Positions 1 through 19,050 of a stretch of DNA of 64,000 nt are shown here, in pieces (the stretch's first letter is position 1; every line of letters begins with the position of its first letter). The position numbers were made by a program, and so were the translations under genes. Origin of the DNA: Candidatus Woesearchaeota archaeon (lineage in GTDB: Archaea > Nanobdellota > Nanobdellia > Woesearchaeales > GCA-2686295); the NCBI GenBank assembly GCA_013202845.1, contig JABMPT010000008.1, positions 5,415 through 69,414 of the forward strand, read 5' to 3'. The notes under the pieces were generated by a model that saw only the letters and a program-made list of their open reading frames with translations, was not told where the DNA came from and made no database searches.

Positions 1-447
1 AGGAATAAAATACCTGTTATAACCGGGAAAACAACTCCTTTCCACATTGGAAGAGCAGAGGTTTTCAAGAAAGGAACAGATGTAACTATAATTGCTTGTG
101 GAATAATGGTTAACGAAGCATTGAAAGCATCGGAAGAATTGTATAGTCACGGAGTGAATGCTGAATTAATAAACTGCCACACAATAAAGCCCATTGACAA
201 AGCTAAGATAATAGCTTCCGCAAAGAAAACAGGTTGTGTCGTGACAGCAGAAGAACACCAGAAGCATGGTGGATTAGGAAGTGCAGTTGCAGAAGTGATT
301 GTTAAGCATCACCCAGTGCCGATGGAGTTTGTAGCAGTGAATGACAAGTTTGGAGAAAGCGGCAAACCAGACGAATTAATGAAGAAATATGGATTAACTT
401 CTAAAGACATAGTTCATGCAGTGAATAAAGTCGTTAAAAGGAAGTAA
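1..447 (+). CDS. transketolase C-terminal subunit, 5'-truncated by the window edge
   Basis: Frame 1 is open from position 1. The C-terminal sequence (GGLGSAVAEV..., ...PDELMKKYGLT) matches the transketolase C-terminal domain family. Stop TAA at 445-447. Confidence 0.75.
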   Translation, partial: RNKIPVITGKTTPFHIGRAEVFKKGTDVTIIACGIMVNEALKASEELYSHGVNAELINCHTIKPIDKAKIIASAKKTGCVVTAEEHQKHGGLGSAVAEVIVKHHPVPMEFVAVNDKFGESGKPDELMKKYGLTSKDIVHAVNKVVKRK

Positions 448-2095: not shown

Positions 2096-3430
2096 TTATT
2101 TCTTCCTTTCTTTTCCATCAATATACGCATGCAGGTGATGATATCTCTTTGCGAGTTCTCCTTGATGTGCGATTACCGCTTTTTTGAACAATTTAGGTAT
2201 GTTTAGTTCTAGTCTTTCTTTGCTATAATCTGCTTTTACTAGTTGAGGTATAAATTGTAGTAATGCATCTCCAAATGATTTTGAAGCTTCTCTAGGTAGT
2301 TCTATGGGTAGTTTATCTTGTGCTAGTATTACTGGTCCAAATCCTTCTACTCCATCTTTTACTTTCTCTGTTAATGGTTCATATACATATACTGGGTTTT
2401 CGCTTGTCGTTGCTTTTGTCGTTAGTTCTATTGACCCTTCTATGTCGCATGATATGTCTGCTATTACTCTTAGTTTTGGATTTGGATTGAATTCGTAGAA
2501 TTGTTTCATATAACTTAGTGTTACTAGTCTTGGAAACTTCGGTTCCCAGTATATTCCGTTTACCATTATGCTTAGGTATGGTATAAACTTTTCAAATTTG
2601 CTTGTGAATCTTTCTGGATACTTTCTATATAGATAGCTGTCAAAGTTTCCTCCTTCTTTTTTCATAAGAATGTCTGATTTTTTAAATTCAACTATGTATA
2701 TTACTCCGTTTGAGAATTTTCCTTTTCTATAAAATGCTCCTAGTTCATCAGCAGATATGTTTATGGATGGTAGTAATCTGATGATTTCTTGTGATGCTTT
2801 TGAAACTCTTCCAAATCCTGTGAATCCAATAACAAGTGGTGTTAATTGGTTTGGCAGTCCTTCTTTTTTGATTTTTTTACCTATGTTCTTGATAACTTTT
2901 TTTATTTCAGCTAAACTATCATATGTACATGTTTGTTTTAATTCTTCAAATGGGTTTTCAACTCCATCCCATTTTAATCTTTTACCAAAAATCCATAAGG
3001 CATTAATCATTCCAACATAACCTGCATAATCACCAAAGAATACTACTCTTCTTCCATTATCTCGCTTTACTAGTTCATAATCAATTAAAGTAATTTTTTT
3101 CTTAAGAATTTGCTTGAGCATTCCCATATTGTATTTTTGACCTTTGATTGTATGAGAAAAAAACAAATAAGTTTTGCCTGCTATTAGCTCTTTAGCTGGA
3201 ACTTCTTTTACTCCTAGAATAACTTTACATGGTTTTAAGTCTCTTGAGATAGTTGCACCTGTCGCTCTATATTCTGCATCTTTAAAAATACGTAGTTTTG
3301 AAGGTTGAACTATTACTCCAATATCTTTATGTTCATGAATTAGTTTTTTAACATGCTCTGGTGTTAATACAACTCTTCTCTCATCAACATGGCCTGTTTC
3401 TTTTTTTATACCAATAAACACTTTCTCCAT
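2096..3430 (-). CDS. saccharopine dehydrogenase / LOR-SDH (alanine dehydrogenase/PNT-like) family protein
   Basis: 444 aa; architecture and length resemble lysine-ketoglutarate reductase / saccharopine dehydrogenase-like enzymes. ATG start at 3430. Confidence 0.5.
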   Translation of the reverse strand: MEKVFIGIKKETGHVDERRVVLTPEHVKKLIHEHKDIGVIVQPSKLRIFKDAEYRATGATISRDLKPCKVILGVKEVPAKELIAGKTYLFFSHTIKGQKYNMGMLKQILKKKITLIDYELVKRDNGRRVVFFGDYAGYVGMINALWIFGKRLKWDGVENPFEELKQTCTYDSLAEIKKVIKNIGKKIKKEGLPNQLTPLVIGFTGFGRVSKASQEIIRLLPSINISADELGAFYRKGKFSNGVIYIVEFKKSDILMKKEGGNFDSYLYRKYPERFTSKFEKFIPYLSIMVNGIYWEPKFPRLVTLSYMKQFYEFNPNPKLRVIADISCDIEGSIELTTKATTSENPVYVYEPLTEKVKDGVEGFGPVILAQDKLPIELPREASKSFGDALLQFIPQLVKADYSKERLELNIPKLFKKAVIAHQGELAKRYHHLHAYIDGKERKK

Positions 3431-3546
3431 AAAAGTAATAATTTCATGTCAGGCTTTAAACTTTCCTATTTCTCAAATAATCTTTTGAATCATAAAAGAA
3501 TATTTAAAGGTTTTACAAATATAGAGTAACATCAATATATTTGTTT

Positions 3547-3616
3547 TCGACATGAAGAAATGTTGAACAGAGTTGTTTAATAAGTGTTTGGGAGGGAAAA
3601 GCGGAAGATTTTGAAC
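3547..3616. repeat. composite intergenic repeat copy (blocks 1+2)
   Basis: Near-identical to 9590-9658. Confidence 0.7.
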
Positions 3617-4450
3617 TTATTCAACAGCTGCTGGAATTTTAGGAGCTCCATCAAACAATATTGTATTCTCAGGGATTTTTTCCTTCATTGTGCCAAACTT
3701 AATGTGACAATTAATACTATTCTTTTTACAGAATTCTATAACTTGTGTTGCACATTTTTCATAAAATTCCTCATTACCATTTCTAAACATACTGCTTTCC
3801 ACATTATAATTCAACTTTCCAAAAATGATGGTGTCTACAAAAGAAATTTTGTTTAATATTTCTAACAGGTTTTGCTTTTGTATACTCTCAGGAGGGTATG
3901 GCTCAACACTAACCCATGTTTTCAATCCTTGGTCATGAAGATATTTTAATGCTGCAATCCTTTTTTCATAAGGAGCGCTATAAGGTTCCCATTTTTTCTT
4001 ATAATTATTATCAAGAGAAACTAGAGTAATTCCATATTCATTATTAGCACCGAATTTTTCAATGTTCTTCAAAACTTTAGGATAAATTCCTTTTGTTAAA
4101 ACAGTGCATTTAATATTGTCCTTGTTAAGTCTTGCAATGATTCTCAGCGTTAAATGTTCAACTTCTTTATAACCACACATGAAAGGGTCTGTCATAAAGC
4201 ATAGATGAACAAATTTTATCTCATCTTTGTATTTTGGAATTTCCTTATCTAAGATTTCAATCGCATTTTCGACGATTTTAGGTTTTAGCCAGTCATGATA
4301 AGTTTTGACTCTCCCAAACCTTTTAGCCATATTGAAAGCATAGCAAGGAAAAGTACACCCATGAGAACAACCTTCAACATGATTGATACAGAAATCAGCG
4401 TATTCAACACCACTTTTATACAAAAGACTCTTCCTTTTAACACTCTCCAA
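3617..4450 (-). CDS. radical SAM / SplB (COG1533)-like protein with variant three-Cys motif C-x3-C-x3-C
   Basis: N-terminal GCSHGCTFPCYA resembles the GCSHxCxYCYA cluster of SplB-like radical SAM proteins but has one extra residue. Apparent TTG start. Immediately upstream of the TcmP-like gene. Confidence 0.5.
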   Translation of the reverse strand: MESVKRKSLLYKSGVEYADFCINHVEGCSHGCTFPCYAFNMAKRFGRVKTYHDWLKPKIVENAIEILDKEIPKYKDEIKFVHLCFMTDPFMCGYKEVEHLTLRIIARLNKDNIKCTVLTKGIYPKVLKNIEKFGANNEYGITLVSLDNNYKKKWEPYSAPYEKRIAALKYLHDQGLKTWVSVEPYPPESIQKQNLLEILNKISFVDTIIFGKLNYNVESSMFRNGNEEFYEKCATQVIEFCKKNSINCHIKFGTMKEKIPENTILFDGAPKIPAAVE

Positions 4451-4513
4451 GTCCTAACACCTCATACTTCACCCTTTTTACAATAAAATAATAATAGTAT
4501 ATAATAGTTTTGA

Positions 4514-5596
4514 TTATGAAAATATCACTGAATCTTCTTCATTTAAACCAGTTCTTGGCTTTCCGGTTTTAGTTTCTTTCTCAAATCGGTCTATTTTGGC
4601 TTTGCCTTCAATCTCAAGTTCTTTAATAACTTGACGAAAATGTTTTACAAGATAAACTGTTTCATCTAACTGATCACAAATGATTTCTTGAAAGGTTTTT
4701 GTTTTTTTCGAATATTCAGATAATAAATATTTTTTTAATTCTTTGAATTTTATATCATCATAGTCAAAAAAAGTCATTTGATTCTGATTCCTTCCTCTAT
4801 ATTCAACGCGTCCATGATTATATTTAGCGAAAGAACTCTTCATTATCTCACATCCTAGATAATAATTTGTTAAATGAAATAAATAATAATAAGTTCTTTT
4901 CATTAAAGGAAAACTTATTTTAAAAGGATATACAAATTCACAGAACTCTTTTAGTTTTAGACGATAAAGTTCTATTGTTTTATTTTCTTTATCTTGACCT
5001 GAGAACTTATTTAGAGATTTCCATTCATCAGAACCGAATAAGTCAGTCAAAACATTGCTAGCTTGTTCAACATTCAAATTTCTTATTATACCATCATACA
5101 TAAAATTTAAGAAAATCTCTGATTTCGGAATTTTCATCATTTTTTTTAAAGTTGTTAACTTGATTTTAAATCCGAAAGGATCAACAAAGAAAAAGGATGG
5201 GGCTAAATTTGTATGTTTGTCTAGAATTTTATTTATTGCTTTATCAAAATCTGAATTAATAAACTTAACTTCAACATCTAACTTTCTAAGTTCGAGAATT
5301 GTTTTAATATTATCAAGGTTTGATTGTTTGCTATCAATTATAATAAGACATGCGTCTCTTTTTAGACCTTCACTATTTTTTTTAATTATTTCCGCCGCAA
5401 GTATTGGAGAACCATAAAAAATTGATTCTTTATATTCATAGGCTCCAATTCCGCCAAACCCATCAAAATAATTTAAAGGACTAGATTTTCCAACAATTTT
5501 AATCCATTTATCAAAATAATCTGCAAATACCAAATGTTTTATTTTAGTGTGTTCTTGATATTTCCAAGTTTTAAAAGGGAGTTTTGTTTCTTTCAT
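4514..5596 (-). CDS. three-Cys-motif partner protein (TcmP-like)
   Basis: N-terminal HTKIKHLVFADYFDKW resembles the TcmP family signature. Gene pair with the 3-Cys protein, separated by a 63-nt spacer. First ATG at 5596 (the track's first M is GTG). Confidence 0.45.
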   Translation of the reverse strand: MKETKLPFKTWKYQEHTKIKHLVFADYFDKWIKIVGKSSPLNYFDGFGGIGAYEYKESIFYGSPILAAEIIKKNSEGLKRDACLIIIDSKQSNLDNIKTILELRKLDVEVKFINSDFDKAINKILDKHTNLAPSFFFVDPFGFKIKLTTLKKMMKIPKSEIFLNFMYDGIIRNLNVEQASNVLTDLFGSDEWKSLNKFSGQDKENKTIELYRLKLKEFCEFVYPFKISFPLMKRTYYYLFHLTNYYLGCEIMKSSFAKYNHGRVEYRGRNQNQMTFFDYDDIKFKELKKYLLSEYSKKTKTFQEIICDQLDETVYLVKHFRQVIKELEIEGKAKIDRFEKETKTGKPRTGLNEEDSVIFS

Positions 5597-5686
5597 CACA
5601 AAAAAGGTTGTTTATTATTATGGTAGTTTTGTATTTATATACTTTATGTGACCATGTCCAGTGCTGGAAACTTATTCATCAGAAGG

Positions 5687-5729
5687 ATTGTTTGTTGGTG
5701 GCATAAGAATTAATGTCCGCTCGGGGCAT
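5687..5729. repeat. composite repeat copy (block 3 + GC hairpin block 4), overlapping the 3' coding end of 5710-6267
   Basis: gattgtttgttggtggcataagaattaatgtccgctcggggcat. Confidence 0.65.
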
Positions 5730-6267
5730 ATTTATTCTTTTTTAAAAGAACCACTTTCCAAGTCACTTTTCCATCCTTATTCATTTTTACTTCAGGACGA
5801 ATATTGTAATTCGGCTCAATTTTACACTGTTCACAAGCAATCATATAGAGCACCGCAACTAATAATACACTATACACATGAAACTTTTGCCAATCATTAG
5901 AAGAACTAACTGCCTTAAGTAATTCTGCATTATCTGTATGAAACAATAACTCCATATTTTCAAGTTTCTTATTAACATCTTCAATAGTTACAGTAATTGA
6001 ATGAACGAGTTTATTTCTCAAATCAATAATTAATTTGATAAGATTGTAAGCACGTTTTTCTAAAACACCTTTACTCAAAAGAGCTTTACATCTTTCCTTA
6101 AGCGTTCCTTTAACACCCATCTTCTTACAAATAAAAAGTAAGTAATGCTCCATGTATAAATCAATATACAAAATAAGAACTCGAACGTCAAAAGTAGGTT
6201 TTTGACGTACTATTCCTTCAATGTCATTATAAAACGATATTAAATTAACAATTTTCTTCATAAACAT
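5710..6267 (-). CDS. HEPN-like protein (RN-x3-H motif)
   Basis: IDLRNKLVHS fits the HEPN R-x4-6-H consensus (RNxxxH). Helical, 185 aa. The C-terminal codons coincide with the repeated GC-rich hairpin motif. Confidence 0.4.
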   Translation of the reverse strand: MFMKKIVNLISFYNDIEGIVRQKPTFDVRVLILYIDLYMEHYLLFICKKMGVKGTLKERCKALLSKGVLEKRAYNLIKLIIDLRNKLVHSITVTIEDVNKKLENMELLFHTDNAELLKAVSSSNDWQKFHVYSVLLVAVLYMIACEQCKIEPNYNIRPEVKMNKDGKVTWKVVLLKKNKYAPSGH

Positions 6268-6581
6268 AAAAATACTTCTTGTATGTATTTAATTATTTTC
6301 TTTTTCTTAAATAACCACACAACAAAAACAACCTTTTCAAGAGTGAATCCGGAAAGAATCACAGGAACAAGCGAGGAAGGATAGTTTGTTGGTGGCATAG
6401 GAGGAAGTGATAAAGAAGAAGAATAATCATCGGGGTTATTATGGAAAGCAATAGATGTTGTATATGAGAATAAAATGTTTTCATCCTTCGAATATTGGAT
6501 ACGGGATGCAGACAAAAGCACACCAAGTGTGAAAACGGCAAAGAGAAAAATTACTAAAATTCTTGCTAATCCCGACAAATC

Positions 6582-6773
6582 TTATCTCACTCTGTACTCA
6601 TAAGCGTTTCTCCTACCGGCGTTCTTATACGTGAGGAGGTTTGTTTTCCTCAGCTTCTTCAGAGACATGGTCACTGAACCAATAGAAACTTTCAATCTTT
6701 TAGCAATATCTTTAGATGCAAACCATCTTCCTTTGTTCTTACACAGAAAATCATACACTTCTTGCTGCCCCAT
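6582..6773 (-). CDS. small winged-helix DNA-binding protein
   Basis: 63 aa, basic. SIGSVTMSLKKL.K..LL resembles a wHTH recognition helix. ATG at 6773. Confidence 0.45.
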   Translation of the reverse strand: MGQQEVYDFLCKNKGRWFASKDIAKRLKVSIGSVTMSLKKLRKTNLLTYKNAGRRNAYEYRVR

Positions 6774-6936
6774 CAAAAATCACCACTTATGATTTTTGTG
6801 AGTCTCAAAAAAGTCTTTTTTTGTTGCCCCATAATTACCGCTCTTTATGTATTTGAAACGTTGCAGTATATAAGCCTTTGTTTTTATATAGCAACATCCG
6901 TAAACAACCACAGAACAATCGAGAAAATTATTTTAT

Positions 6937-8059: not shown

Positions 8060-8140
8060 TTTATTTTAACCTCTCCTTGATATCAACATCCTTCTTCTTG
8101 TACTCCTCCCATCCTTCAGGAGTACAAAAATCACTGTTTT

Positions 8141-8211
8141 CGCCATGAAGAATTGATGAGAGAGGTGTTTAACAAGTGTTTGGGAGAAAAAAGCGGAGGA
8201 AATGCGGGAAG
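8141..8211. repeat. composite intergenic repeat copy (diverged block 1 + block 2)
   Basis: cgccatgaagaattgatgag...aagtgtttgggagaaaaaagcggaggaaatgcggg. Confidence 0.6.
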
Positions 8212-9589: not shown

Positions 9590-9682
9590 TCGACATGAAG
9601 AAATGTTGATAGAAGTGTTTAATAAGTGTTTGGGAGAGGAAAGCGGAGGAATTGCGAGTTGTTTGTTGGTGGCATAAGAAGG
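9590..9682. repeat. composite intergenic repeat (blocks 1+2+3: tcgacatgaagaaatgttga...gtttaa | taagtgtttgggag-rr-aagcggagg-aattgcgag | ttgtttgttggtggcataagaagg)
   Basis: Blocks recur at 1071-1109 (block 2), 3547-3616 (1+2), 8141-8211 (1+2), 2001-2047 (3+4), 5687-5729 (3+4) and 6381-6407 (3). Confidence 0.7.
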
Positions 9683-9749
9683 TTTCTGAAACGAAAAATA
9701 GAAATATTTATATGCATTTGTGTATATTTGTAGTTACGGGGGATATAAA

Positions 9750-9896
9750 ATGGAATCGAAGAATATCACTTTAAGAGTCAATTCAAAATTGTATGATGGT
9801 TATAAGCAATTTTGCAAGAAGAAGGGATTATTGATATCGAGACAAGTTGAAATTATGATGGAAAAACAGTTTAAAGAGAGACAAAAAAATGACTGA
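9750..9896 (+). CDS. ribbon-helix-helix (CopG/Arc-like) small DNA-binding protein
   Basis: 48 aa, MESKNITLRVNSKLYDGYKQFCKKKG...; has the RHH beta-strand/helix pattern. Not in the ORF track (<60 aa). Its stop overlaps the ATPase start (8-nt overlap). GGGGGAT Shine-Dalgarno-like sequence upstream. Confidence 0.4.
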   Translation: MESKNITLRVNSKLYDGYKQFCKKKGLLISRQVEIMMEKQFKERQKND

Positions 9897-11580
9897 TGGA
9901 AGAATTATTGATGAAGGAAGATTGTCTTTTACTGTAGAATCAAGCGTAATTGGTCATTTGAGTATTGGATTGTATAGAAACTTCTCTAGAGCTATCAAAG
10001 AATTAGTCTCAAATGCCTATGATGCACTTGCAATTGAAGTAAAAATCAACTTAGATATAAAATCAAAAAGACTGATTATTAAAGATGATGGTAAAGGAAT
10101 GAATAAAGATGACATACAGAGGCAATTGCTTACAATAGGAAAAACTACACCAAGAACTCAGATGAGTATAGGTTTAGGCAGAAAAAGAATTGGTCAATTT
10201 GGAGTGGGATTCTTGGCAGTATTCCCTTACTGTAATAAAATCAGGTTAATTAGCAAGAAAAGAGGAGAAGAAAATGCTGTGGAGATAACAATTGATGTTA
10301 GTAAATACTATAAGAATAGCACATTTACTCTGGATAAAGACTTAGAGGATATTGAGTATAAGGTGGTTTCAAGTTTACTGCCTAAAGAGAAAGGAGAAAC
10401 GATTATACTTCTTGAAAGCATAAAGCCACACATTTTAAAAATATTCAATAAGAGCAAAGGAAAATCTCACAGTTCTATAGAACAGTTTAGTGAATTTGAA
10501 AAAACAAAATGGGAATTGCAACAATACTTACCGTTACAATTTTCAGAATCTTGCCCAGAATTAAGGGATTTTTTTAGTGTAGAAAGTAGGACCCCTTTAA
10601 GAGTATGGTTTGATGGAGAAGAATTATTTAGGAATGTTCCAGAGGGTTCAAATAACAAGAAATCTGAGATGATAGAGAAAGGTGAAGAATCTTTTGGGGA
10701 TATCAAAATAAAATATGTCATTCTTTCTCCAATTAAATCGATTCGACCACAGGAATCAAGAGGACTTCAAATTAGGATGAATGATGTGGGTATTGGTTTG
10801 CCAACAGATTTTGATGTTATTAAACTCAGAGGAAGACTCCTTGGTAAACTCAATTATCTAGCAGGAGAAGTTCATATTATAAAAGGATTAGATAATGACC
10901 TTATGTTAGATAGGGATGGATTTTATTTTACTGAAGAAGTTTCAGCTATGTATGAATTCTTTAGGGATAAACTCACAAAATGGGACCATAAATTTCAAAA
11001 CACTGCAAAGGAAGATAAAGCAGTATATGAAATTCTGTCAAGATTACCTAAGCAGGATAAAATAGTGCAGGAGTTTAAATCGGTAGGAATTTTAAAATTT
11101 GATAAAAACAACCTTCGCATACCTAAAGCGCCAATAACAAGGAAACATAAAACTAAATTGTCTTCAATCTCAAAACAAATTGATACTATAGTTAGCAAGA
11201 AAGGTTATAGCGTCAAGAGAAGGAAAAAGAGTGATACATGTGACCAATCTATCAAAGTTGACAAAAAGACAAAGAAGGTTATCATTTATGAAGACCATCC
11301 TGCACTCTCTGAACAGATTGAAATAGACGGTAAGAAAATATCAATAACATATGACGAACAGGATGAATTAAAAAAGGATGAATCAATATGTGAGTTAGAT
11401 TCAAAAAACAAAGTAGCTACTTTTAATAAAGACCATGAAATTTTTGATCTTAGCTTAGACAACAAGATAATTATGGAATTTGTTATCAGACTCCATCTTC
11501 TAGCAAAGACTGAAATGATTTCAAATTCTGCTTTAAAGAAAATTTTGAAGGCCTTCAAAAAGACTTTCTCCAAAGAATAA
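9889..11580 (+). CDS. GHKL (Bergerat-fold) ATPase, MORC/MutL/Hsp90-like (HATPase_c_3-type)
   Basis: N-box ELVSNAYDA, G1 DDGKGM and G2 GQFGVGFLAVF motifs in the N-terminal 110 aa. The 450-aa C-terminal region is unassigned. Confidence 0.8.
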   Translation: MTDGRIIDEGRLSFTVESSVIGHLSIGLYRNFSRAIKELVSNAYDALAIEVKINLDIKSKRLIIKDDGKGMNKDDIQRQLLTIGKTTPRTQMSIGLGRKRIGQFGVGFLAVFPYCNKIRLISKKRGEENAVEITIDVSKYYKNSTFTLDKDLEDIEYKVVSSLLPKEKGETIILLESIKPHILKIFNKSKGKSHSSIEQFSEFEKTKWELQQYLPLQFSESCPELRDFFSVESRTPLRVWFDGEELFRNVPEGSNNKKSEMIEKGEESFGDIKIKYVILSPIKSIRPQESRGLQIRMNDVGIGLPTDFDVIKLRGRLLGKLNYLAGEVHIIKGLDNDLMLDRDGFYFTEEVSAMYEFFRDKLTKWDHKFQNTAKEDKAVYEILSRLPKQDKIVQEFKSVGILKFDKNNLRIPKAPITRKHKTKLSSISKQIDTIVSKKGYSVKRRKKSDTCDQSIKVDKKTKKVIIYEDHPALSEQIEIDGKKISITYDEQDELKKDESICELDSKNKVATFNKDHEIFDLSLDNKIIMEFVIRLHLLAKTEMISNSALKKILKAFKKTFSKE

Positions 11581-11582
11581 AA

Positions 11583-12308
11583 ATGGAAGAGGCTTTGATT
11601 AGTTTAAAAACGGAAATTGTAAATAGTTTTTGGAAAAACAAATTTATTAAAATAGGTCAACTTGTTTTTCCTAGGAAAAAATATAAATCCCTAAAAGTAC
11701 TAAGTCTTACTAATTCTCGAAACATTGAAGAAGTAAAAATACTTATTAAGGATCATTTGACATCAAGGGCCTATCTGTTTGCATGGTGCAATGATTTCAT
11801 TGAAGCTTTAAGCTTAGATGCAGAGGCTAAGTTTAATGAAGTTCTTGATGCTGCCAAATTTGAGGAAACTTTTCTAAGCCGTACTGATCATAAGGTTTAT
11901 GCTTGTTTTCCATTTCATGTGCTTAATATAGATTTTACATCACAAGCAGTTGAATCAGAAGATGGTCGTTTGGAAAAGGAATTACACTCAATTGAAAAGG
12001 TTTTATTGAAACAAAAAGAGACAAATGGAAATAATGCTTGGTTGATGTTGTTTACTACCTTAATTGATAATACACCGGTCAATGTAGATGATATTAAAAT
12101 AAATTCTGACCAATATACAATAAGTTTATGGTCGGGAATGACTTTCTCTAAGCAAGGAAGTTTGAATGATTCTGATGATATCAAGAACATTCTCATGGAA
12201 TTTTTTCACAAAATGAAAGATAAATATGGGCTTCAGGTTGATATTGATTCATTTACAAAACCAATTAACTCTCATGAAGTAATGTCTATTTCGATTATAG
12301 TAAAATAA
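11583..12308 (+). CDS. hypothetical protein (operon partner of the GHKL ATPase)
   Basis: Start 2 nt after the ATPase stop. No recognisable motif. Confidence 0.45.
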   Translation: MEEALISLKTEIVNSFWKNKFIKIGQLVFPRKKYKSLKVLSLTNSRNIEEVKILIKDHLTSRAYLFAWCNDFIEALSLDAEAKFNEVLDAAKFEETFLSRTDHKVYACFPFHVLNIDFTSQAVESEDGRLEKELHSIEKVLLKQKETNGNNAWLMLFTTLIDNTPVNVDDIKINSDQYTISLWSGMTFSKQGSLNDSDDIKNILMEFFHKMKDKYGLQVDIDSFTKPINSHEVMSISIIVK

Positions 12309-12323
12309 CTTTAAGGTGATATT

Positions 12324-13103
12324 ATGGCAAGAATAAATGTTAGTACCTTTCCTCGGATGTTAAAAAGCGTTCACAATGCTCAAAAGAAATGGAGACAGCA
12401 GAACTATGAAAACTCTATTACCAAGTTTAAAGATGAAATCGAGAAAACTCTTGAAATATTGAATTTTTATGGAAAATGGAAGAGTAAGTTTTCTGGTCAA
12501 AAGATAACAGATAAAATGATACCTGAAATATTCATGGATGGATTATCAAGTCTCCATTTTGCTTTATGGGGACAATATAAATATGCGAATATGGGTTTAC
12601 GTTCACAATTAGAGACTGCTTTGAGACTTATTTATTTTATGGACCACCCACGAGAATATGAATGGTGGTTAAGTGGTAATGAATGGTATAAGGGACAAAA
12701 AGGAGCTTATGTTTGGGGTGATGATTTTAATTACTTTAAACAGATAGATAAGATAAACAAGTTTGATAAAAATTTAGCTGGTGAAAAAAAGATATATTCC
12801 TCATCTAGTTCGGGCAAGTCTGGAAATTTACTAAAGGAAATTTACGGAAAACTCTCCAAGTCTATACATACTAGTGCACAACATTTTCAAACCTCTATAG
12901 GTAGATTTTCTCCTAAGTATTCCATGTCTAAAATGGAGACTTGGTTAAAGTCCTGTAAGGATTTACAATGTTACATAATTGTATCTTTGATATTATCTTT
13001 TCCTAAAGAATTTAAGAAAATGTCATCTATAGAACGGAGTACAATATTAACAAAAGGAGTTGTTGATTCGGTATATATCAAAAAAATAAATGAAGTAATC
13101 TAA
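12324..13103 (+). CDS. hypothetical protein (operon partner; weak R-x6-H HEPN-like motif RLIYFMDH)
   Basis: AGGTGA Shine-Dalgarno-like sequence upstream; co-directional tight spacing. Confidence 0.4.
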   Translation: MARINVSTFPRMLKSVHNAQKKWRQQNYENSITKFKDEIEKTLEILNFYGKWKSKFSGQKITDKMIPEIFMDGLSSLHFALWGQYKYANMGLRSQLETALRLIYFMDHPREYEWWLSGNEWYKGQKGAYVWGDDFNYFKQIDKINKFDKNLAGEKKIYSSSSSGKSGNLLKEIYGKLSKSIHTSAQHFQTSIGRFSPKYSMSKMETWLKSCKDLQCYIIVSLILSFPKEFKKMSSIERSTILTKGVVDSVYIKKINEVI

Positions 13104-13104
13104 A

Positions 13105-14172
13105 ATGACTAAACAAGAGAAAATTATCTCACCATCCACAAGATATCAAGGTAGTAAGAGAAGAATACTGCCTTGGCTGAAATCAACATTTGATAATCTA
13201 GAATTTGAAACTGTTTTAGATGGCTTTGGAGGTACTGCAAGCGTTAGTTATTTGTTCAAGCTAATGGGAAAAGAAGTAACCTTCAACGATATTCTTTTAT
13301 CAAATTATCAAACAGGACTTGCTTTAATTGAAAACAAAAAAACATTATTAAATGAAGAAGATATTGAATTCATTCTTAACATAAATAGAAAAAGTAATTA
13401 TTCAAACTTAATTTCGAAGAATTATAAAAATATATATTTTCTTGATGAAGAAAATAAGTGGTTAGACAAAGTAATTAACAATATTAAAGATTTATCTTTA
13501 TTTTACAAAGGAAATAAGTTGAAATTAAAAAAGGCTTTAGCTCATCATATTCTTTTTCAATCTTGTCTCTCAAAAAGGCCTTTTAATTTATTTCATAGAA
13601 AGAATCTAAACATGAGAACTAACACTAATATTAAAAGAAGTTTTGGTAATAAAGTTACTTGGGATACTCCTTTCAGAGAACATTTTATTAAATTTAATAA
13701 AGAGTACTCAGATAGAGTATTCGATAACAAAAGAAGAAACAAAGCTATGAATAAAGACATCTTCAAGATAAATAAGACTTATGATTTAGTTTATCTTGAT
13801 CCTCCTTATATGCGAACTCATACAACCAAACCTCAGAAATACCAAGAAATGTATCACTTTTTAGAAGGAATTATGAACTATGAAACTTGGCTAAAGAATA
13901 TTGATTATATTCGAATACACAAACCGTTCATCATAGAAAATAATAACTGGAACGAAAAAGTGTTAGAGAATTTTGATGAACTATTTAAGAAATTTTCTGA
14001 CTCTGTATTGGTTGTTTCTTATGGAAATAAAGGTTCGCCAAGTATATCTTCTATTGTGCGTTTGATGAAAAAATACAAAAACAAAGTTAGAACAATTTCA
14101 AGACCTTATTCATACAGATTAAATAGAAATAATGGAAAAGGATATCGAGAAGTGATTATTATTGGAGAATAA
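13105..14172 (+). CDS. D12-class (Dam-like) N6-adenine DNA methyltransferase
   Basis: N-terminal Y-QGSKRR..P, motif I DGFGGTASV, motif IV YLDPPYM. Start 1 nt after the upstream stop. Confidence 0.65.
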   Translation: MTKQEKIISPSTRYQGSKRRILPWLKSTFDNLEFETVLDGFGGTASVSYLFKLMGKEVTFNDILLSNYQTGLALIENKKTLLNEEDIEFILNINRKSNYSNLISKNYKNIYFLDEENKWLDKVINNIKDLSLFYKGNKLKLKKALAHHILFQSCLSKRPFNLFHRKNLNMRTNTNIKRSFGNKVTWDTPFREHFIKFNKEYSDRVFDNKRRNKAMNKDIFKINKTYDLVYLDPPYMRTHTTKPQKYQEMYHFLEGIMNYETWLKNIDYIRIHKPFIIENNNWNEKVLENFDELFKKFSDSVLVVSYGNKGSPSISSIVRLMKKYKNKVRTISRPYSYRLNRNNGKGYREVIIIGE

Positions 14173-14173
14173 G

Positions 14174-14842
14174 CTAAGAATTATAGTTGTTTAAGTAGTC
14201 CATAGTTCTAATATAGGACTTATCAATTAGTCTATTAAATTTTGTTCTTAGTCTTTTAGTTTCTGTTGTTAAATACCCTTCATGTGTAGGTGAAGGGTAC
14301 TTCTTTAGTTTTATCTTAGTTTGTTTATCTTTCCTTCCAGCATTATGAACGTATTGGTTTCTAATAATATAAATATGTTCCATTATTTTCTTTTCATCTT
14401 GTGTTAAAAAAGGAATTCCAAACAATTCGAAGAAATCGTAAACATCAAATCTGTTTTTAATATTTAACTTATTTAAGATAATTTCATAAGTATTGCGTTT
14501 TCTTGAAGATACTAATTCGCCAATAATATTCTTATGTTTCGTTTCTTTGCTTGTGAAAAAAGTTGAAAATTTATTAAGAAGTTCTTGTATTAAATCTTTA
14601 TAATAGACCTCAAAATTTGTACTTAAAGATATGAGTGCATGTTCTGAACATGATACTTCGATTTTGATTAATTCTTTATCTTGTGATTTTTTTACTGCCT
14701 CGTGATGTTTTGGATGTATATCATAAGCTTTTTGTTGATATATCCAATTATATGTTTTAAGTTTACTCATCGCAGTTATTAACATCTCAGTTCTTTTTGC
14801 ATTAGTATGAAAATTTGATATTGAATTAATTTTTCTTATCAT
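14174..14842 (-). CDS. HEPN-like protein (RN-x3-H), convergent on the MTase
   Basis: IIRNQYVHNAG matches RNxxxH. Its stop abuts the MTase stop. Confidence 0.4.
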   Translation of the reverse strand: MIRKINSISNFHTNAKRTEMLITAMSKLKTYNWIYQQKAYDIHPKHHEAVKKSQDKELIKIEVSCSEHALISLSTNFEVYYKDLIQELLNKFSTFFTSKETKHKNIIGELVSSRKRNTYEIILNKLNIKNRFDVYDFFELFGIPFLTQDEKKIMEHIYIIRNQYVHNAGRKDKQTKIKLKKYPSPTHEGYLTTETKRLRTKFNRLIDKSYIRTMDYLNNYNS

Positions 14843-14963
14843 TATTGATTTATAGAATATTATTTATTATAAATCTTATTAAAATTATTGAACTTAGATT
14901 AAATTTTTTGACCCGGAACGATGTAAACTATTTTTTTGAACAAAGTTTTTTTACAGCAACTTT

Positions 14964-15026
14964 CGTAAATAACCACACAAAAACAACTTTGAGAGTGAAT
15001 CAAGAAAGAATCACAGGAACAAGCGA
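14964..15026. repeat. second intergenic repeat family (cgtaaataaccacacaaaaacaac tttgagagtgaatcaagaaagaatcacaggaacaagcgag)
   Basis: Copies at 6306-6377 (fused to block 3 of the first family), a shortened variant at 6888-6935, and the 5' part at 16221-16250. Confidence 0.6.
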
Positions 15027-15049
15027 GAAAAATAATTATTCTAGAACTT

Positions 15050-15337
15050 TTATAAGAAATTTCCTTTTTTGACTTGTTCAACAATATACATTATGTCTGC
15101 GACAACTATTGCAACACCTAAAAGATTGAAAGCAGCTTTGAAAACAGGTACAAGATTAAGAAAAGAATCAGTTGGAGTGGCTCCTGCTAAGGTATCAACA
15201 ATCATATAACCAATATTGGCTTGACTAGGTATTGCAAAATAAACTCCAATAAAGAAAACAATTATGGCTCCTATTACTCCTTGTTCATTTCTTTTCCTTG
15301 GCATTTTTTTCTTTGTTTTATCATCTTTTTTAATCAT
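15050..15337 (-). CDS. small membrane protein
   Basis: Lys-rich N-terminus followed by two hydrophobic helices. Confidence 0.3.
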   Translation of the reverse strand: MIKKDDKTKKKMPRKRNEQGVIGAIIVFFIGVYFAIPSQANIGYMIVDTLAGATPTDSFLNLVPVFKAAFNLLGVAIVVADIMYIVEQVKKGNFL

Positions 15338-15555
15338 TATTTTTTAAAAATATATATTCCTCTATCGTTATTTCCGGCCGGAATTGCAGTAACTAAAATC
15401 CAACCTTCTTTAGCGAGCTTATTAATTTCATCTGTTACTTGTTCAAAAATTCCTTCTTTATTTGTTTTCCAAGGATTAATTAATCCTGCATGCACAATTC
15501 CTTTCGCAATATATTCAACCATTATAAAACACCCCTCAATAATTTTTAAGAGCAA
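15337..15555 (-). CDS. hypothetical small protein
   Basis: 72-aa ORF whose stop overlaps the start codon of the downstream small membrane gene. Confidence 0.3.
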   Translation of the reverse strand: MLLKIIEGCFIMVEYIAKGIVHAGLINPWKTNKEGIFEQVTDEINKLAKEGWILVTAIPAGNNDRGIYIFKK

Positions 15556-16190
15556 TTACATAATTCTGTAATTCTATGTTTAATAACTTCTTTAATTCTA
15601 GTTTCTATATGTGGAAATATTGCAGTAAGGACTTCTACATCCTCACCAATATCTGTATCAAAAGTTGTTGTTAAATCTTTTGTTTCTCCGCCTGGAATAA
15701 AAACAGATACTTCTTTCACACCAGCTTTCTTTAGTGTCCTATAACTATGTTTAACAGCGAAAGTACCTCCCTCATCTTCAAAATTTTTTATTTTAGTTGT
15801 TTGTTCTGTTCCCCAATTATCTATCTCCAGAAGAGTTCCTAAAGTGGAGTCATCTATAATACCAAATTTAAAAGTATATTGATAAGATTCATTTTCGGTA
15901 TAAGGTTGTGTTATATTCACGCATTTTTTTGTTGGACATTCAGGACATATTTGTTCAGAACACAGTTCAATAGAGTCCACAACAACACCGTCTTGACATT
16001 GATATTTAATCACTGTTTCTATTAGACACTCAGGACATATTTGTTCGGAACATAAATTAACGGAATCAACCACTTGACCATTTTGACATTGGTATTTTAT
16101 AATTGTCTCTGGCTCACACCCAGACAGAACAAACATACATAAGAGTAAAAAAATTATTTTTCTCATAATGCCCCCAAAACAATCATACAT
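15546..16190 (-). CDS. secreted lipoprotein-like protein with duplicated Cys-rich repeat (IKYQCQ.G.VVDS..LCSEQICPEC x2)
   Basis: Signal peptide with lipobox-like LSGC; internal tandem protein repeat. Confidence 0.45.
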   Translation of the reverse strand: MYDCFGGIMRKIIFLLLCMFVLSGCEPETIIKYQCQNGQVVDSVNLCSEQICPECLIETVIKYQCQDGVVVDSIELCSEQICPECPTKKCVNITQPYTENESYQYTFKFGIIDDSTLGTLLEIDNWGTEQTTKIKNFEDEGGTFAVKHSYRTLKKAGVKEVSVFIPGGETKDLTTTFDTDIGEDVEVLTAIFPHIETRIKEVIKHRITELCNCS

Positions 16191-16281
16191 AGTAGAAACT
16201 TCTTTTTAAAGATTTAGATTTTTCGTAAATAATCACACAAAAACAATCTTTATATACAACATTTGTTTAACATTTGTTATA

Positions 16282-17112
16282 ATGAATGTTAAAATTCCCA
16301 GATTTGTCAAATGGGCAGGCGGAAAAACTCAATTAATCAACCAATTCAAACCTTTCTTCCCTAAACAAATAGAAAGATACTTTGAACCATTTGTAGGTGG
16401 AGGAGCTGTTTTGTTTTACATAATTCAGAAATTTTCTCCAAAAAAAGTATTTATTTCAGATACTAATGAAGAGCTTATTAATGCTTATGAAATAATAAAA
16501 AATGATGTTGAATCTTTAATTAAAGAACTTAAGAAGCATAAAAACAATTATGACAAAAATCCTAAAGAGTATTACTATAAAACAAGAGCTATAAATCCTG
16601 AAGATTTAACCGAAGTAGAAAAAGCAGCCAGATTCATATTTCTTAACAGAACATGCTTCAATGGATTATATAGAGTGAATTCTAAGAATAGATTCAATGT
16701 ACCTATTGGAAGATACACAAATCCTGCAATAGTAAGAGAAGATATTCTTAGAGAAATTAATAAATTGCTTCAAAAAGTCGAAATAGAAGTTATGTCTTTT
16801 GAGAAAATAGTTAAGATTGTCAAGAAAGGAGACTTTGTTTATTTCGATCCTCCTTATTGGCCAATAAAAAGCGATAATTTCACAAGTTACACAAAACTAG
16901 ATTTCAAGAAAGAAGATCAAGAAAAACTTGCAGAAGTTTTTCAAGAATTAGATAAAAAAGGAGTTAAAGTAATGTTAAGTAATAGCGATACAGAATTAAT
17001 TCAAAATTTATATTCTAAATACAAACCAAAGATTGTCAAAGCAACTAGAATGATTAATTCTAAAGCAGAAGGAAGAGGAGCAATTAATGAAGTTGTTGTT
17101 GTGAACTATTAG
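16282..17112 (+). CDS. Dam/DpnM-like (alpha-class) GATC-type N6-adenine DNA methyltransferase
   Basis: KWAGGK, FVGGGAV, NGLYRVN, FDPPYWP. Confidence 0.85.
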   Translation: MNVKIPRFVKWAGGKTQLINQFKPFFPKQIERYFEPFVGGGAVLFYIIQKFSPKKVFISDTNEELINAYEIIKNDVESLIKELKKHKNNYDKNPKEYYYKTRAINPEDLTEVEKAARFIFLNRTCFNGLYRVNSKNRFNVPIGRYTNPAIVREDILREINKLLQKVEIEVMSFEKIVKIVKKGDFVYFDPPYWPIKSDNFTSYTKLDFKKEDQEKLAEVFQELDKKGVKVMLSNSDTELIQNLYSKYKPKIVKATRMINSKAEGRGAINEVVVVNY

Positions 17113-17635
17113 CTCGTTTGGATATGTTCTTTACAAGTTTTACACCCTCAACTTCTTGCATTAATATCTTAATAGGAACCAATCGACCTACTGTGGTGTG
17201 TTTATAATTACCTTCAAGGTCTTTTGTAGTTGTTTTACTTTCTTTGAATCTATCAATGTTTTTCAAGAACCATTCTCTAACTTTATTTAATGGGAGAATG
17301 TACATATCATCCCATTCAGTGAAATAATAGAAAATAATTCTGGCTTTACTTTTAACAAAACATCCTTTTGTTCCCAAACTCTCATTGCTTAATGTTTCAA
17401 ACCAAAAATTCCCAGTAGTATACTTGTCCGTTTTTACTTCGATAGACACAAAGAATTTTAATTCGCCTTTTTTATAACTCCAAATTAAATCAATATCGTT
17501 TTTTTGATATTCAGGATCATTCTCAACATTCTTCAATTCAATTGTTTTTTTAAGATCACCTAAATATCTACAAACAACTTCTATTCCTTTCTTCGAGAAA
17601 TCATTTTTTTCATCAAAGGTATAAGACTTAACCAT
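17084..17635 (-). CDS. PD-(D/E)XK nuclease-fold protein, putative restriction endonuclease subunit
   Basis: D-x(12)-E-V-K core (NDIDLIW...FFVSIEVK). True ATG at 17635; the track's first M is TTG. The ATG lies inside AATGGTTAA, which overlaps the upstream ORF's stop. Confidence 0.45.
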   Translation of the reverse strand: MVKSYTFDEKNDFSKKGIEVVCRYLGDLKKTIELKNVENDPEYQKNDIDLIWSYKKGELKFFVSIEVKTDKYTTGNFWFETLSNESLGTKGCFVKSKARIIFYYFTEWDDMYILPLNKVREWFLKNIDRFKESKTTTKDLEGNYKHTTVGRLVPIKILMQEVEGVKLVKNISKRANSSQQQLH

Positions 17636-18152
17636 TTTGTGTGGCTTTACCAACAATAACAAAAATATCCTCTTCGTTTAGAATGGAGTCCATTAAATTC
17701 TTAAAAACAAAAGCTCTTGCTAAACCAGTTTTTTCCATTCTCATCATCAGCTCTATTAAATGACCAATAAACTCAATAGTATACTCCCCATACTTATTTA
17801 GCTCATCAAATTCTCTTAATTTCTTAGGTGTTGTCTGTTTTAACTGACACTTCTGCTGTTCTTCCTTTGTTCTAAAGGGTTCTACCTTTTCCCACATATC
17901 TCTTAAGTATCTAACAAAATCAAGACTTAATTCTCTGTTGTGCTCCTTTTTAATAAGAATGTCAATAACCCAATGAATGTGCTTTGGAGTTCTAACCCTC
18001 TTATTTGGTTCTTGATATTTAATTATAATATCTAAATCAGGATTTTCTCCTCTACTACCCTGAAATACACCCATAATAGTACCATCCAATAGATTGAATT
18101 CTTTAAAGGAGTGAGCTTTTGTTCCTTTTCCATCTCTCAAACTGTATTCCAT
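17628..18152 (-). CDS. hypothetical protein translationally coupled to the nuclease (possible specificity/partner subunit)
   Basis: 174 aa; its stop overlaps the nuclease ATG by 8 nt; sits between two DNA MTase genes. Confidence 0.35.
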   Translation of the reverse strand: MEYSLRDGKGTKAHSFKEFNLLDGTIMGVFQGSRGENPDLDIIIKYQEPNKRVRTPKHIHWVIDILIKKEHNRELSLDFVRYLRDMWEKVEPFRTKEEQQKCQLKQTTPKKLREFDELNKYGEYTIEFIGHLIELMMRMEKTGLARAFVFKNLMDSILNEEDIFVIVGKATQNG

Positions 18153-18279
18153 AACATAAATTATACTGAAGATGTTTTTATAAATCTTTTCGATTCTTCC
18201 GAAAACATCCTGTCAATAACAACGAAAACACTGGACATCGAGGAGAAAACTATATAAAAGAAAAAGTTCCAAGCATAGT

Positions 18280-19050
18280 ATGACTATTTTTGAAGATAAC
18301 AATATAACATTACTGAAAGGGGATTGTTTGAAACTCTTACCAACCATAAGAAAAGGCTCAGTAACAACTATATTTGCAGATCCTCCTTACAATCTTTCTA
18401 ATGGAGGAATTACGTGTAAAGCCGGAAAAATGGTTTCTGTGAACAAAGGAGACTGGGATAAATCCAAAGGATTTACTAAAGATTATGAATTTACATATAA
18501 CTGGTTGAAATTATGTAAAGATGTCTTAAAACCTAATGGAACTATATGGATATCAGGAACTCCTCATAATATTTATCAAGTAGGACATGCTTTACAATCT
18601 CTTGGTTTTAATATTCTAAATGAAATTTCTTGGTTTAAACCAAATGCTCCACCAAATCTTTCTTGTCGTTATTTTGCACATTCACACGAGACAATTTTAT
18701 GGGCTAAAAAAGATAAAAAAGCAAAACACACATTTAATTATAAAGAAATGAAAAAATGGGATGATAAAATTAGTCCTTCAAATAAACAAATGAGAAGTGT
18801 TTGGCACATTCCTTTAACAAGCCCGAAAGAAAAGAAGAATGGTAAGCATCCAACACAAAAACCAATTGAGTTATTAAAAAGAATAATCACTGCAAGTTCT
18901 AATAAAAAAGATTTAATTTTGGATCCTTTTAATGGTTCAGGCACTACTGGAATTGTAGCAAAAATGTTAGGAAGAAGATATATAGGAATTGATAAAGAAC
19001 AAAAGTTTCTAAATTTAACAAAAAAAAGATTTAATGAATTAAAGAAATAA
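18280..19050 (+). CDS. beta-class N4/N6 DNA methyltransferase (DpnA/ParB-MTase-like, PF01555-type)
   Basis: ADPPYN early, FNGSGTTG near the C-terminus (circularly permuted beta-class order). Confidence 0.8.
   Translation: MTIFEDNNITLLKGDCLKLLPTIRKGSVTTIFADPPYNLSNGGITCKAGKMVSVNKGDWDKSKGFTKDYEFTYNWLKLCKDVLKPNGTIWISGTPHNIYQVGHALQSLGFNILNEISWFKPNAPPNLSCRYFAHSHETILWAKKDKKAKHTFNYKEMKKWDDKISPSNKQMRSVWHIPLTSPKEKKNGKHPTQKPIELLKRIITASSNKKDLILDPFNGSGTTGIVAKMLGRRYIGIDKEQKFLNLTKKRFNELKK

Follow-up and report, generated by a model that had tools for sequence, protein, structure and literature searches.

The 64,000-nt stretch of Candidatus Woesearchaeota archaeon DNA analysed here (contig JABMPT010000008.1, positions 5,415 to 69,414 of the forward strand; hereafter the window) carries two adjacent genes, one encoding TcmP (a 'three-Cys-motif partner protein') and the other a radical S-adenosylmethionine (SAM) protein (rSAM) with a C-x3-C-x3-C cluster motif. 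The two genes recur together, or fused, in archaea, bacteria and viruses. We interpret the pair as a mobile module of two enzymes that together modify nucleic acid, in all likelihood DNA, and put the probability of that reading at about 0.5.

Pairs of this type are already catalogued—under TIGR04474, as 'radical SAM protein' and among the PDC candidates—and the exact proteins of the window are present in NCBI. What is new here is the assignment of RlmJ-like and spore photoproduct lyase (SPL)-like folds with conserved catalytic-type residues, the recognition that the cysteine motif reflects a proline insertion or deletion, the fusions, the asymmetry in conservation between rSAM and TcmP, and the finding that the neighbouring HEPN-like and winged helix-turn-helix (wHTH) genes are incidental. 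As a candidate for a third radical-SAM chemistry on DNA, the rSAM family is large and tractable, and the existence of the pair will in itself come as no surprise to specialists.

Pairing, fusion and mobility

A genomic survey restricted to one genome per species returned 63 rSAM loci from DPANN archaea, CPR/Patescibacteria, Bacillota, Nitrospirota, Spirochaetota, Planctomycetota, Zixibacteria and others, with rSAM proteins 50–82% identical to that of the window. TcmP partners were detected using an iterated profile with the HMMER filters switched off; a narrow profile at default filters missed about one-third of them. TcmP lies immediately upstream of rSAM on the same strand at 42 loci (with −49 to +76 nt between the genes where the locus is intact), is joined to it in one open reading frame (ORF) at three and is partially fused at one, which makes 46 of the 58 evaluable loci (79%). 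Twelve loci have no adjacent TcmP and five are cut by a contig end. When divergent TcmP partners were compared with the TIGR04474 cutoff, eight of the nine tested passed. The arrangement is repeated in viruses, with TcmP directly upstream of rSAM on 12 of the 14 rSAM-bearing contigs in IMG/VR. Protein searches recovered fusions of about 590 and of 630–631 amino acids (aa), with TcmP at the N-terminus and rSAM at the C-terminus, as in the gene order of the window; the 630–631-aa fusions keep the cysteine motif.

The flanks of the pair are not conserved, with 121 Pfam families among the 149 immediate neighbours. The commonest belong to the mobilome or to genetic conflict: DNA methyltransferases, Type I HsdR/M/S, Schlafen AlbA_2/HATPase_c_4, YhcG nuclease, RadC, PIN, MNT nucleotidyltransferases, DUF3800, T5orf172, SIR2 and an ImmA/IrrE-type peptidase with a helix-turn-helix (HTH) domain. 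In temperate phages of Gordonia, TcmP stands between the immunity repressor and the integrase and is the next gene after the repressor, and a gut phage contig has the order integrase, TcmP, rSAM, N6_N4 methyltransferase and ResIII helicase, the last two resembling a Type III Mod/Res system. In the window, the pair lies 3–5 kb from a restriction–modification (R-M) and defence island at 9720–19050. A preliminary description, made from the letters of the window alone, had placed the pair in an island context of this kind; that was borne out both in the window and at other loci, and the pair is not confined to housekeeping contexts, being found in R-M islands, prophage immunity regions and integrative elements. 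Identities of 50–70% across distant phyla, together with these mobilome contexts, show that the pair is horizontally mobile. That DPANN archaea and CPR bacteria keep it in their reduced genomes suggests that it brings a strong selective benefit.

The two proteins evolve at very different rates. Across 741 locus pairs, mean identity was 59% for rSAM and 24% for TcmP, with rSAM the more conserved in 99.6% of comparisons, and near-identical rSAMs at times stand beside very different TcmPs. Such asymmetry is what a catalytic core accompanied by a diversifying or exchangeable specificity subunit would show.

At seven mainly Bacillota loci (L049 among them), an ImmA/IrrE-type M78 peptidase of about 290–630 aa with a Cro/C1 HTH follows rSAM directly; it may regulate the module in a lineage-specific way or belong to a prophage switch. 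At one TcmP-less locus (L001), an adjacent N6_N4 DNA methyltransferase was considered as a substitute partner and dropped, as the other 11 TcmP-less loci show no such thing. That methyltransferase is preceded by an RHH gene (7639–7821 of L001, minus strand) whose product is 52% identical to the RHH protein of the window (Table 1). The likeness suggests a controller-type protein that R-M modules share and that moves from one to another.

Folds and predicted active sites of the two proteins

The identification of the 361-aa protein as TcmP is secure: it matches TIGR04474 at 157.7 bits (cutoff 53; E 5.2e-46) over residues 16–260 and profile positions 1–262 of 263, and its C-terminal GMT-like wHTH domain scores 33.1 bits in Pfam (gathering threshold, GA, 27). 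The predicted structure, with a predicted local distance difference test score (pLDDT) of 95, has its best structural match in the Rossmann fold of RlmJ, the E. coli 23S rRNA m6A2030 methyltransferase (PDB 6qe5/4blu; Legionella LPL1258, 2oo3). Comparison of TcmP with E. coli RlmJ at the sequence level found no homology (hhalign probability 2%, pairwise alignment z 0.5), so the link between them is one of fold and motif order.

Residue correspondences were accordingly taken from motif order, not from superposition. On that footing, K18-H19 of RlmJ would correspond to K21-H22 of TcmP, D40-T-H-A-G-A-G-R-Y to D46-G-F-G-G-I-G-A-Y (motif I, D-x-F-x-G-x-G), G99-S-P to G63-S-P, and D164-P-P-Y to D140-P-F-G (motif IV). 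In RlmJ, K18 and D164 are catalytic, their alanine mutants being dead, and S100 and H19 bind the amino-acid moiety of SAM (PMC3814359). Conservation of the TcmP residues was assessed by column counts on a profile alignment of 46 very divergent partners, including the DUF5131-paired protein of a Gordonia phage. K21 is present in 44/44, D46 in 43/44, G52 in 44/44 and S64 in 41; D140 is found in 45/45 and P141 in 43, position 142 is Y or F in 35, and position 161 is acidic in 46/46. Taken by motif, K21, D140-P141, D46-x3-G50-x-G52 and G63-S64-P65 are kept in 38–46 of about 46 partners.

TcmP departs from RlmJ in its C-terminal wHTH, in having D-P-[FY]-G where RlmJ has D-P-P-Y, and in the absence of the RlmJ-type helical subdomain (RlmJ 47–98), since motif I (46–54) is separated from G63-S-P by only eight residues. 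RlmJ, moreover, is a housekeeping enzyme of rRNA that is inherited vertically and has no rSAM as partner. We conclude that TcmP acts like a methyltransferase of the exocyclic-amine type, presumably transferring a methyl group, and that it stands outside the RlmJ sequence family.

The 277-aa protein scores 49.8 bits against Pfam Radical_SAM PF04055 (GA 29.5) over residues 22–180, and its predicted fold is a partial TIM-barrel radical-SAM core of the SPL type, the fold type of SplB (PDB 4fhc) and COG1533. These results support the placement, already made in the preliminary description, of the protein in the SPL/COG1533-like part of the radical-SAM superfamily. It is no member of the curated families nearest to it, scoring 47.0 bits against a cutoff of 360 for PA0069 (NF033668), 43.6 against 430 for Rv2578c (NF038135) and 40.7 against 410 for rSAM_mob_pairB (TIGR04470), and a search of its sequence against PDB chains returned only noise. 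Compared with SPL, it has an extra proline in the cluster loop, is shorter (277 against about 340 aa) and has a methyltransferase-fold partner, of which SPL has none.

The cluster motif, GCSHGCTFPCYA, reads E-G-C28-S-H-G-C32-T-F-P-C36-Y-A, that is, C-x3-C-x3-C, exactly as first described, and differs from the canonical C-x3-C-x2-C after beta-1 by one extra residue, Pro35. The spacing is kept in 120/120 of the closest homologs (as E-G-C-[SA]-H-G-C-x-[FY]-P-C-Y-A), in 62/62 full-length genomic loci and in 14/14 viral loci, and it is therefore no chance feature. In a literature search, C-x3-C-x3-C turned up only in peptide substrates and, once in passing, in a NifB review; no paper describing the spacing for this rSAM family was found.

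Searched exhaustively with a profile, 1.84 billion representatives (50%-identity clustering) yielded 3,091 relatives of rSAM, 1,281 of them at E<1e-10. Of the best 150 of the 3,091, about 80 show C-x3-C-x3-C, and about 20 show the canonical C-x3-C-x2-C in an equivalent context, or roughly 80% against 20% of family representatives; family members with CSHGCNYCY and CSHGCNYPCY are one proline apart. The variant is thus a single proline inserted between a conserved aromatic residue and the third cysteine. A crude neighbour-joining tree built from 39 full-length representatives interleaves the two motif forms, and identity within the two groups (about 36%) is close to that between them (about 35%). 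Repeated gain or loss of the insertion is probable, although the number of events is provisional given so crude a tree. As canonical-spacing members hold an equivalent place in the family, the cysteine sites are homologous, and the interleaving of forms one proline apart marks a tolerated spacing variant of an ordinary cluster site, not a new cofactor or chemistry. The preliminary description was therefore right in treating the spacing as a real and conserved variant; a different chemistry is not indicated. All of this argues that C28, C32 and C36 are ordinary radical-SAM cluster ligands, with [4Fe-4S] binding as a prediction. The toggling of the proline within one family offers a natural experiment on how far a radical-SAM site tolerates changes in spacing.

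A further cysteine, C84, is near-invariant and lies three residues before T87-D88; by inspection, it is a candidate for an SPL-type catalytic cysteine serving as hydrogen donor. Fusions were also seen in the rSAM family: P0253 joins rSAM to a C-terminal HIRAN domain and P0280 joins it to a sigma70 region-4 HTH. HIRAN is a module that binds damaged DNA and 3′ ends. A third member, P0247, is 1002 aa long, with no Pfam match in its first ~745 residues.

The nearest known relatives of the pair are the TcmP/DUF5131 pairs (TIGR04474 with PF07505, phage Gp37/Gp68; PDC-M30 and PDC-M41), in which a true TcmP likewise stands beside a three-Cys protein. Both kinds of pair are mobile, phage-associated and functionally uncharacterised, and the rSAM of the window shares with DUF5131 the flanks N-x-V-x-G-C and C-Y-A-x3-A-K-R around the motif. 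It is nevertheless not a DUF5131 protein: it scores 23.4 bits (GA 28.9) over profile positions 2–113 of 243, the N-terminal half, and unlike DUF5131 it has a full SPL-like radical-SAM barrel in its predicted structure. Gordonia phage gp41, which is a true DUF5131 protein at 338 bits, carries C-x6-C-x2-C-Y-A (GCDRVSAGCDHCYA) in place of C-x3-C-x3-C; with flanks so similar, the family of the window falls between DUF5131 and the canonical SPL-like enzymes. Gene order differs too, the phage TcmP and DUF5131 genes being tail-to-tail, and TcmP and rSAM head-to-tail or fused. In Gordonia phage ThankyouJordi (MK801727; L066), TcmP and DUF5131 occupy 3263–5841 straight after the immunity repressor, tail-to-tail with a 4-nt overlap, and are annotated as 'methyltransferase' and 'hypothetical protein', respectively.

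Proposed function and competing explanations

In the modification module that we favour, TcmP would bind SAM and present a flipped-out base to an active site of the Lys/Asp-Pro-aromatic kind, as in m6A- or m4C-type modification of exocyclic amines. TcmP would also supply target recognition, probably so in view of its fast evolution and its frequent wHTH. The [4Fe-4S] cluster of rSAM, on C28/C32/C36, would cleave a second SAM to yield a 5′-deoxyadenosyl radical, which would abstract a hydrogen from the same base or from its new substituent, with a modification beyond the reach of either enzyme alone as the outcome. The product would serve as an epigenetic-type mark in conflicts between hosts and mobile elements, through self-marking or protection from restriction; this role is probable because the module sits in R-M and defence islands, integrative elements and prophage immunity regions.

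For DNA as the substrate we counted the predicted DNA-binding accessories, namely the wHTH of TcmP and the HIRAN and sigma70 region-4 HTH fusions. The fold class points the same way. Its only characterised rSAM enzymes, SPL and gp53 of phage M6, both act on DNA, and gp53 is an SPL-like radical-SAM isomerase in thymidine hypermodification that works post-replicatively on an already modified base (PMC8989533). The module would share this logic, in which a first enzyme decorates the base and rSAM remodels it; the likeness is one of fold class and reaction logic, not of sequence comparison. gp53 has the canonical C-x3-C-x2-C (CTVGCAFC), and its partners are a kinase, an aGPT-Pplase and a pyridoxal phosphate (PLP) decarboxylase acting on 5-hydroxymethyldeoxyuridine (5-hmdU), with no methyltransferase-fold partner. 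Ophion, a defence system that contains an rSAM protein, was set aside for its differing architecture (rSAM+PHP+PRTase). A more specific proposal, that the module installs a new radical-SAM-dependent DNA modification—for instance a C-alkylated, rearranged or adenosylated N-methylated base—with TcmP setting the specificity, we put forward tentatively, as a possibility with the odds against it.

Only two enzymes, SPL and phage M6 gp53, are known to perform radical-SAM chemistry on DNA (PMC8989533). If true, this proposal would supply a third such chemistry, and the first whose genes have travelled as a mobile epigenetic cassette of two genes through archaea, bacteria and their viruses. A module that writes a DNA mark would make a class of modification, epigenetic or anti-restriction, that is new and that standard methylome pipelines could miss; it would also explain the long-standing 'partner protein' label of TcmP and provide a compact two-gene tool.

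Several observations weigh against this interpretation. The best structural matches of TcmP, RlmJ and Trm1, are RNA enzymes, not DNA enzymes, and sequence and profile searches of the PDB with TcmP returned no methyltransferase and no RlmJ. H22, the counterpart of the cofactor-binding H19 of RlmJ, is not conserved outside the close subfamily, motif IV is D-P-[FY]-G, not (D/N/S)-P-P-[YFW], and the wHTH is present in only about one-third of TcmP partners. SAM cleavage by a C-x3-C-x3-C loop is itself a prediction. About 21% of evaluable loci have no adjacent TcmP, including that of the closest rSAM relative (L001, 82% identity), so rSAM either can persist without TcmP or uses one encoded elsewhere. 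Across loci, the pair is not regularly accompanied by a dedicated nuclease or reader, so an R-M-like logic is conjectural. Literature on TcmP, DUF5131, TIGR04474, PF07505, GMT-wHTH and PDC-M30/M41 yielded incidental mentions in tables and no functional study.

The alternative that survives best, although we regard it as unlikely, is that the pair is an anti-phage or anti-plasmid effector, in which TcmP recognises the invader and rSAM damages or toxically modifies it, for example by SPL-reverse-type crosslinks or adducts. TcmP matches the PADLOC models PDC-M30A (E 6.7e-24) and PDC-M41A (E 6.3e-10), defence-island neighbours occur at its loci, and the place beside the repressor in Gordonia phages is the usual site of prophage defence genes. 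Compact candidate systems are, in addition, reported to be enriched in DPANN genomes (PMC12988326). Yet PDC systems are guilt-by-embedding candidates, most of them without validation, and the matches of rSAM to the B subunits of PDC-M30 and PDC-M41 are marginal (E 1.1e-5 and 5.4e-6, confined to the N-terminal third). The pair has neither a sensor nor an abortive-infection effector linked to it, an enzyme that damages DNA constitutively would require a self-protection mechanism, of which there was no sign, and viral contigs carry the module too.

Less probable again is modification of RNA (rRNA, tRNA, or a phage or host transcript), with TcmP acting in the manner of RlmJ or Trm1 and rSAM elaborating an RNA base. 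The RNA substrates of those two enzymes fit such a role, as does the lack of a wHTH in about two-thirds of TcmP partners, but the patchy cross-domain spread and variable mobilome flanks of the pair are atypical of housekeeping RNA-modification genes, and the HIRAN and HTH fusions favour DNA.

We consider DNA repair more doubtful still. Here the SPL-like enzyme would directly reverse a specific base lesion, with TcmP as a lesion-recognition or base-flipping subunit whose methyl transfer has been lost. The fold, the HIRAN fusion and the RadC and NUDIX neighbours at some loci are in keeping with repair, and JGI labels some rSAM homologs 'DNA repair photolyase'; that name, however, is an automatic COG label. 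The full SAM-binding and catalytic-type signature of TcmP is strongly conserved, which would be unexpected in a mere lesion binder, and repair genes are usually vertical, whereas this pair moves among R-M genes, toxin–antitoxin genes and integrases.

Locus layout and neighbouring genes

At 3617–6776, five packed minus-strand ORFs were examined, separated by −10 to 110 nt (Table 1). The spacer between TcmP and rSAM, with its GAGGTG element, is consistent with co-transcription of the two genes, and the TATA-like element ahead of TcmP is a possible promoter of the pair itself, an argument weakened by the AT-richness of the genome; together the two elements are weak evidence, in so AT-rich a genome, that the pair forms its own bicistronic unit. 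The GC content of the pair is 0.27–0.32, against 0.35 for the bulk of the window.

Table 1: Features of the pair, its neighbours and the nearby island (window positions unless residues are stated).
Feature	Position	Strand	Description
rSAM gene	3617–4450	−	277 aa, TTG start; second gene of the pair
TcmP–rSAM spacer	4451–4513	−	63 nt; Shine-Dalgarno-like GAGGTG, 7 nt ahead of the rSAM start codon (TTG)
TcmP gene	4514–5599	−	361 aa, begins ...YQEHTKIKHLVFADYFDKW; first gene of the pair
TcmP N-terminal domain	residues ~1–265		RlmJ-like class-I SAM-methyltransferase fold (predicted)
TcmP C-terminal domain	residues ~272–337		GMT-like wHTH
Spacer upstream of TcmP	5600–5709	−	110 nt; TATA-box-like AAGTATATAAATA ~35–40 nt before the start codon
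HEPN-like gene	5710–6267	−	185 aa, DLR84NKLVH89 (R-x4-H); neighbour outside the module
orf106	6258–6578	−	106 aa, hydrophobic N-terminus; neighbour, between the wHTH and HEPN-like genes
Small wHTH gene	6582–6776	−	64 aa from TTG, or 63 aa from ATG at 6773; neighbour
RHH gene	9720–9896	+	Island start; precedes the GHKL restriction-like gene
GHKL-ATPase protein	9889–11580		BbrUII/HgiDII-like restriction-enzyme N-terminus
Two ORFs without assignment	11583–13103		Island
D12-class N6-adenine methyltransferase	13105–14172		Island
Second D12/Dam-like methyltransferase	16282–17112		241 bits
N6_N4 methyltransferase	18280–19050		219 bits

The preliminary description, which ended at the ATG start of the small wHTH gene, had drawn the HEPN-like and wHTH genes into a common system with the pair. 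The pair recurs as described above, but homologs of the HEPN-like gene, orf106 and the wHTH gene were found at none of the 63 rSAM loci (0/63), and the HEPN-like and wHTH genes therefore lie outside the module. A four- or five-gene system, in which a wHTH regulator and a HEPN RNase work with TcmP and rSAM, could draw on the tight packing of the five ORFs on one strand, on the frequency of HEPN-type and wHTH genes in defence loci and on an unrelated HEPN (PF05168) gene upstream of rSAM at one locus (L006), but it is largely refuted by this result, by the near-orphan status of the HEPN-like protein, by the TATA-like element ahead of TcmP and by the loci in which the pair stands alone or fused.

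Among 5.8 billion proteins, only one relative of the 185-aa protein was detected (P0242, 52% identity), in which R84-N-K-L-V-H89 is identical. Against DUF4145 (GA 23.1), the 185-aa protein scores 21.0 bits and P0242 scores 22.8, and five HEPN-clan models (DUF4145, RiboL-PSP, Apea, Swt1 and HepT among them) all hit the same region below threshold. It is thus a probable HEPN protein of DUF4145-like type that falls below every curated threshold; the R-x4-H motif called 'textbook' at first is there and is kept in the relative, but that word goes too far for the scores.

The 63/64-aa protein matches the N-terminal DNA-binding domain of Fe_dep_repress at 26.7 bits (GA 26), along with many wHTH families below threshold, and is predicted to be a winged-helix DNA-binding protein of the MarR/ArsR/DtxR type. 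orf106, which the preliminary description did not mention, has a 3-nt gap upstream and a 10-nt overlap downstream, and comparison with Pfam, NCBIfam, PADLOC and PHROGs gave no family match. The ORF may be spurious or a real gene; if real, it may encode a small membrane protein in a three-gene wHTH–orf106–HEPN unit.

An intergenic repeat of about 65 nt occurs in four plus-strand copies in the first 10 kb of the window (~1040–1105, ~3545–3610, ~8140–8205 and ~9590–9655), one of them 10–40 nt past the rSAM stop codon. Its core, AAGTGTTTGGGAG, is exact at 1075, 3582, 8174 and 9624, and the consensus reads TTCGACATGAAGAAnTGtTGA-AGAgGTGTTTAATAAGTGTTTGGGAGrrrAAAGCGGArGAAtT. Comparison with Rfam gave no match; possible identities of the repeat are a small RNA, a regulatory or terminator element used in common, and a remnant resembling a miniature inverted-repeat transposable element (MITE).

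Within the island, a second possible HEPN protein of 222 aa is encoded at 14174–14842 (minus strand) between methyltransferase genes, with RiboL-PSP-HEPN and Apea-HEPN matches that are both below threshold.

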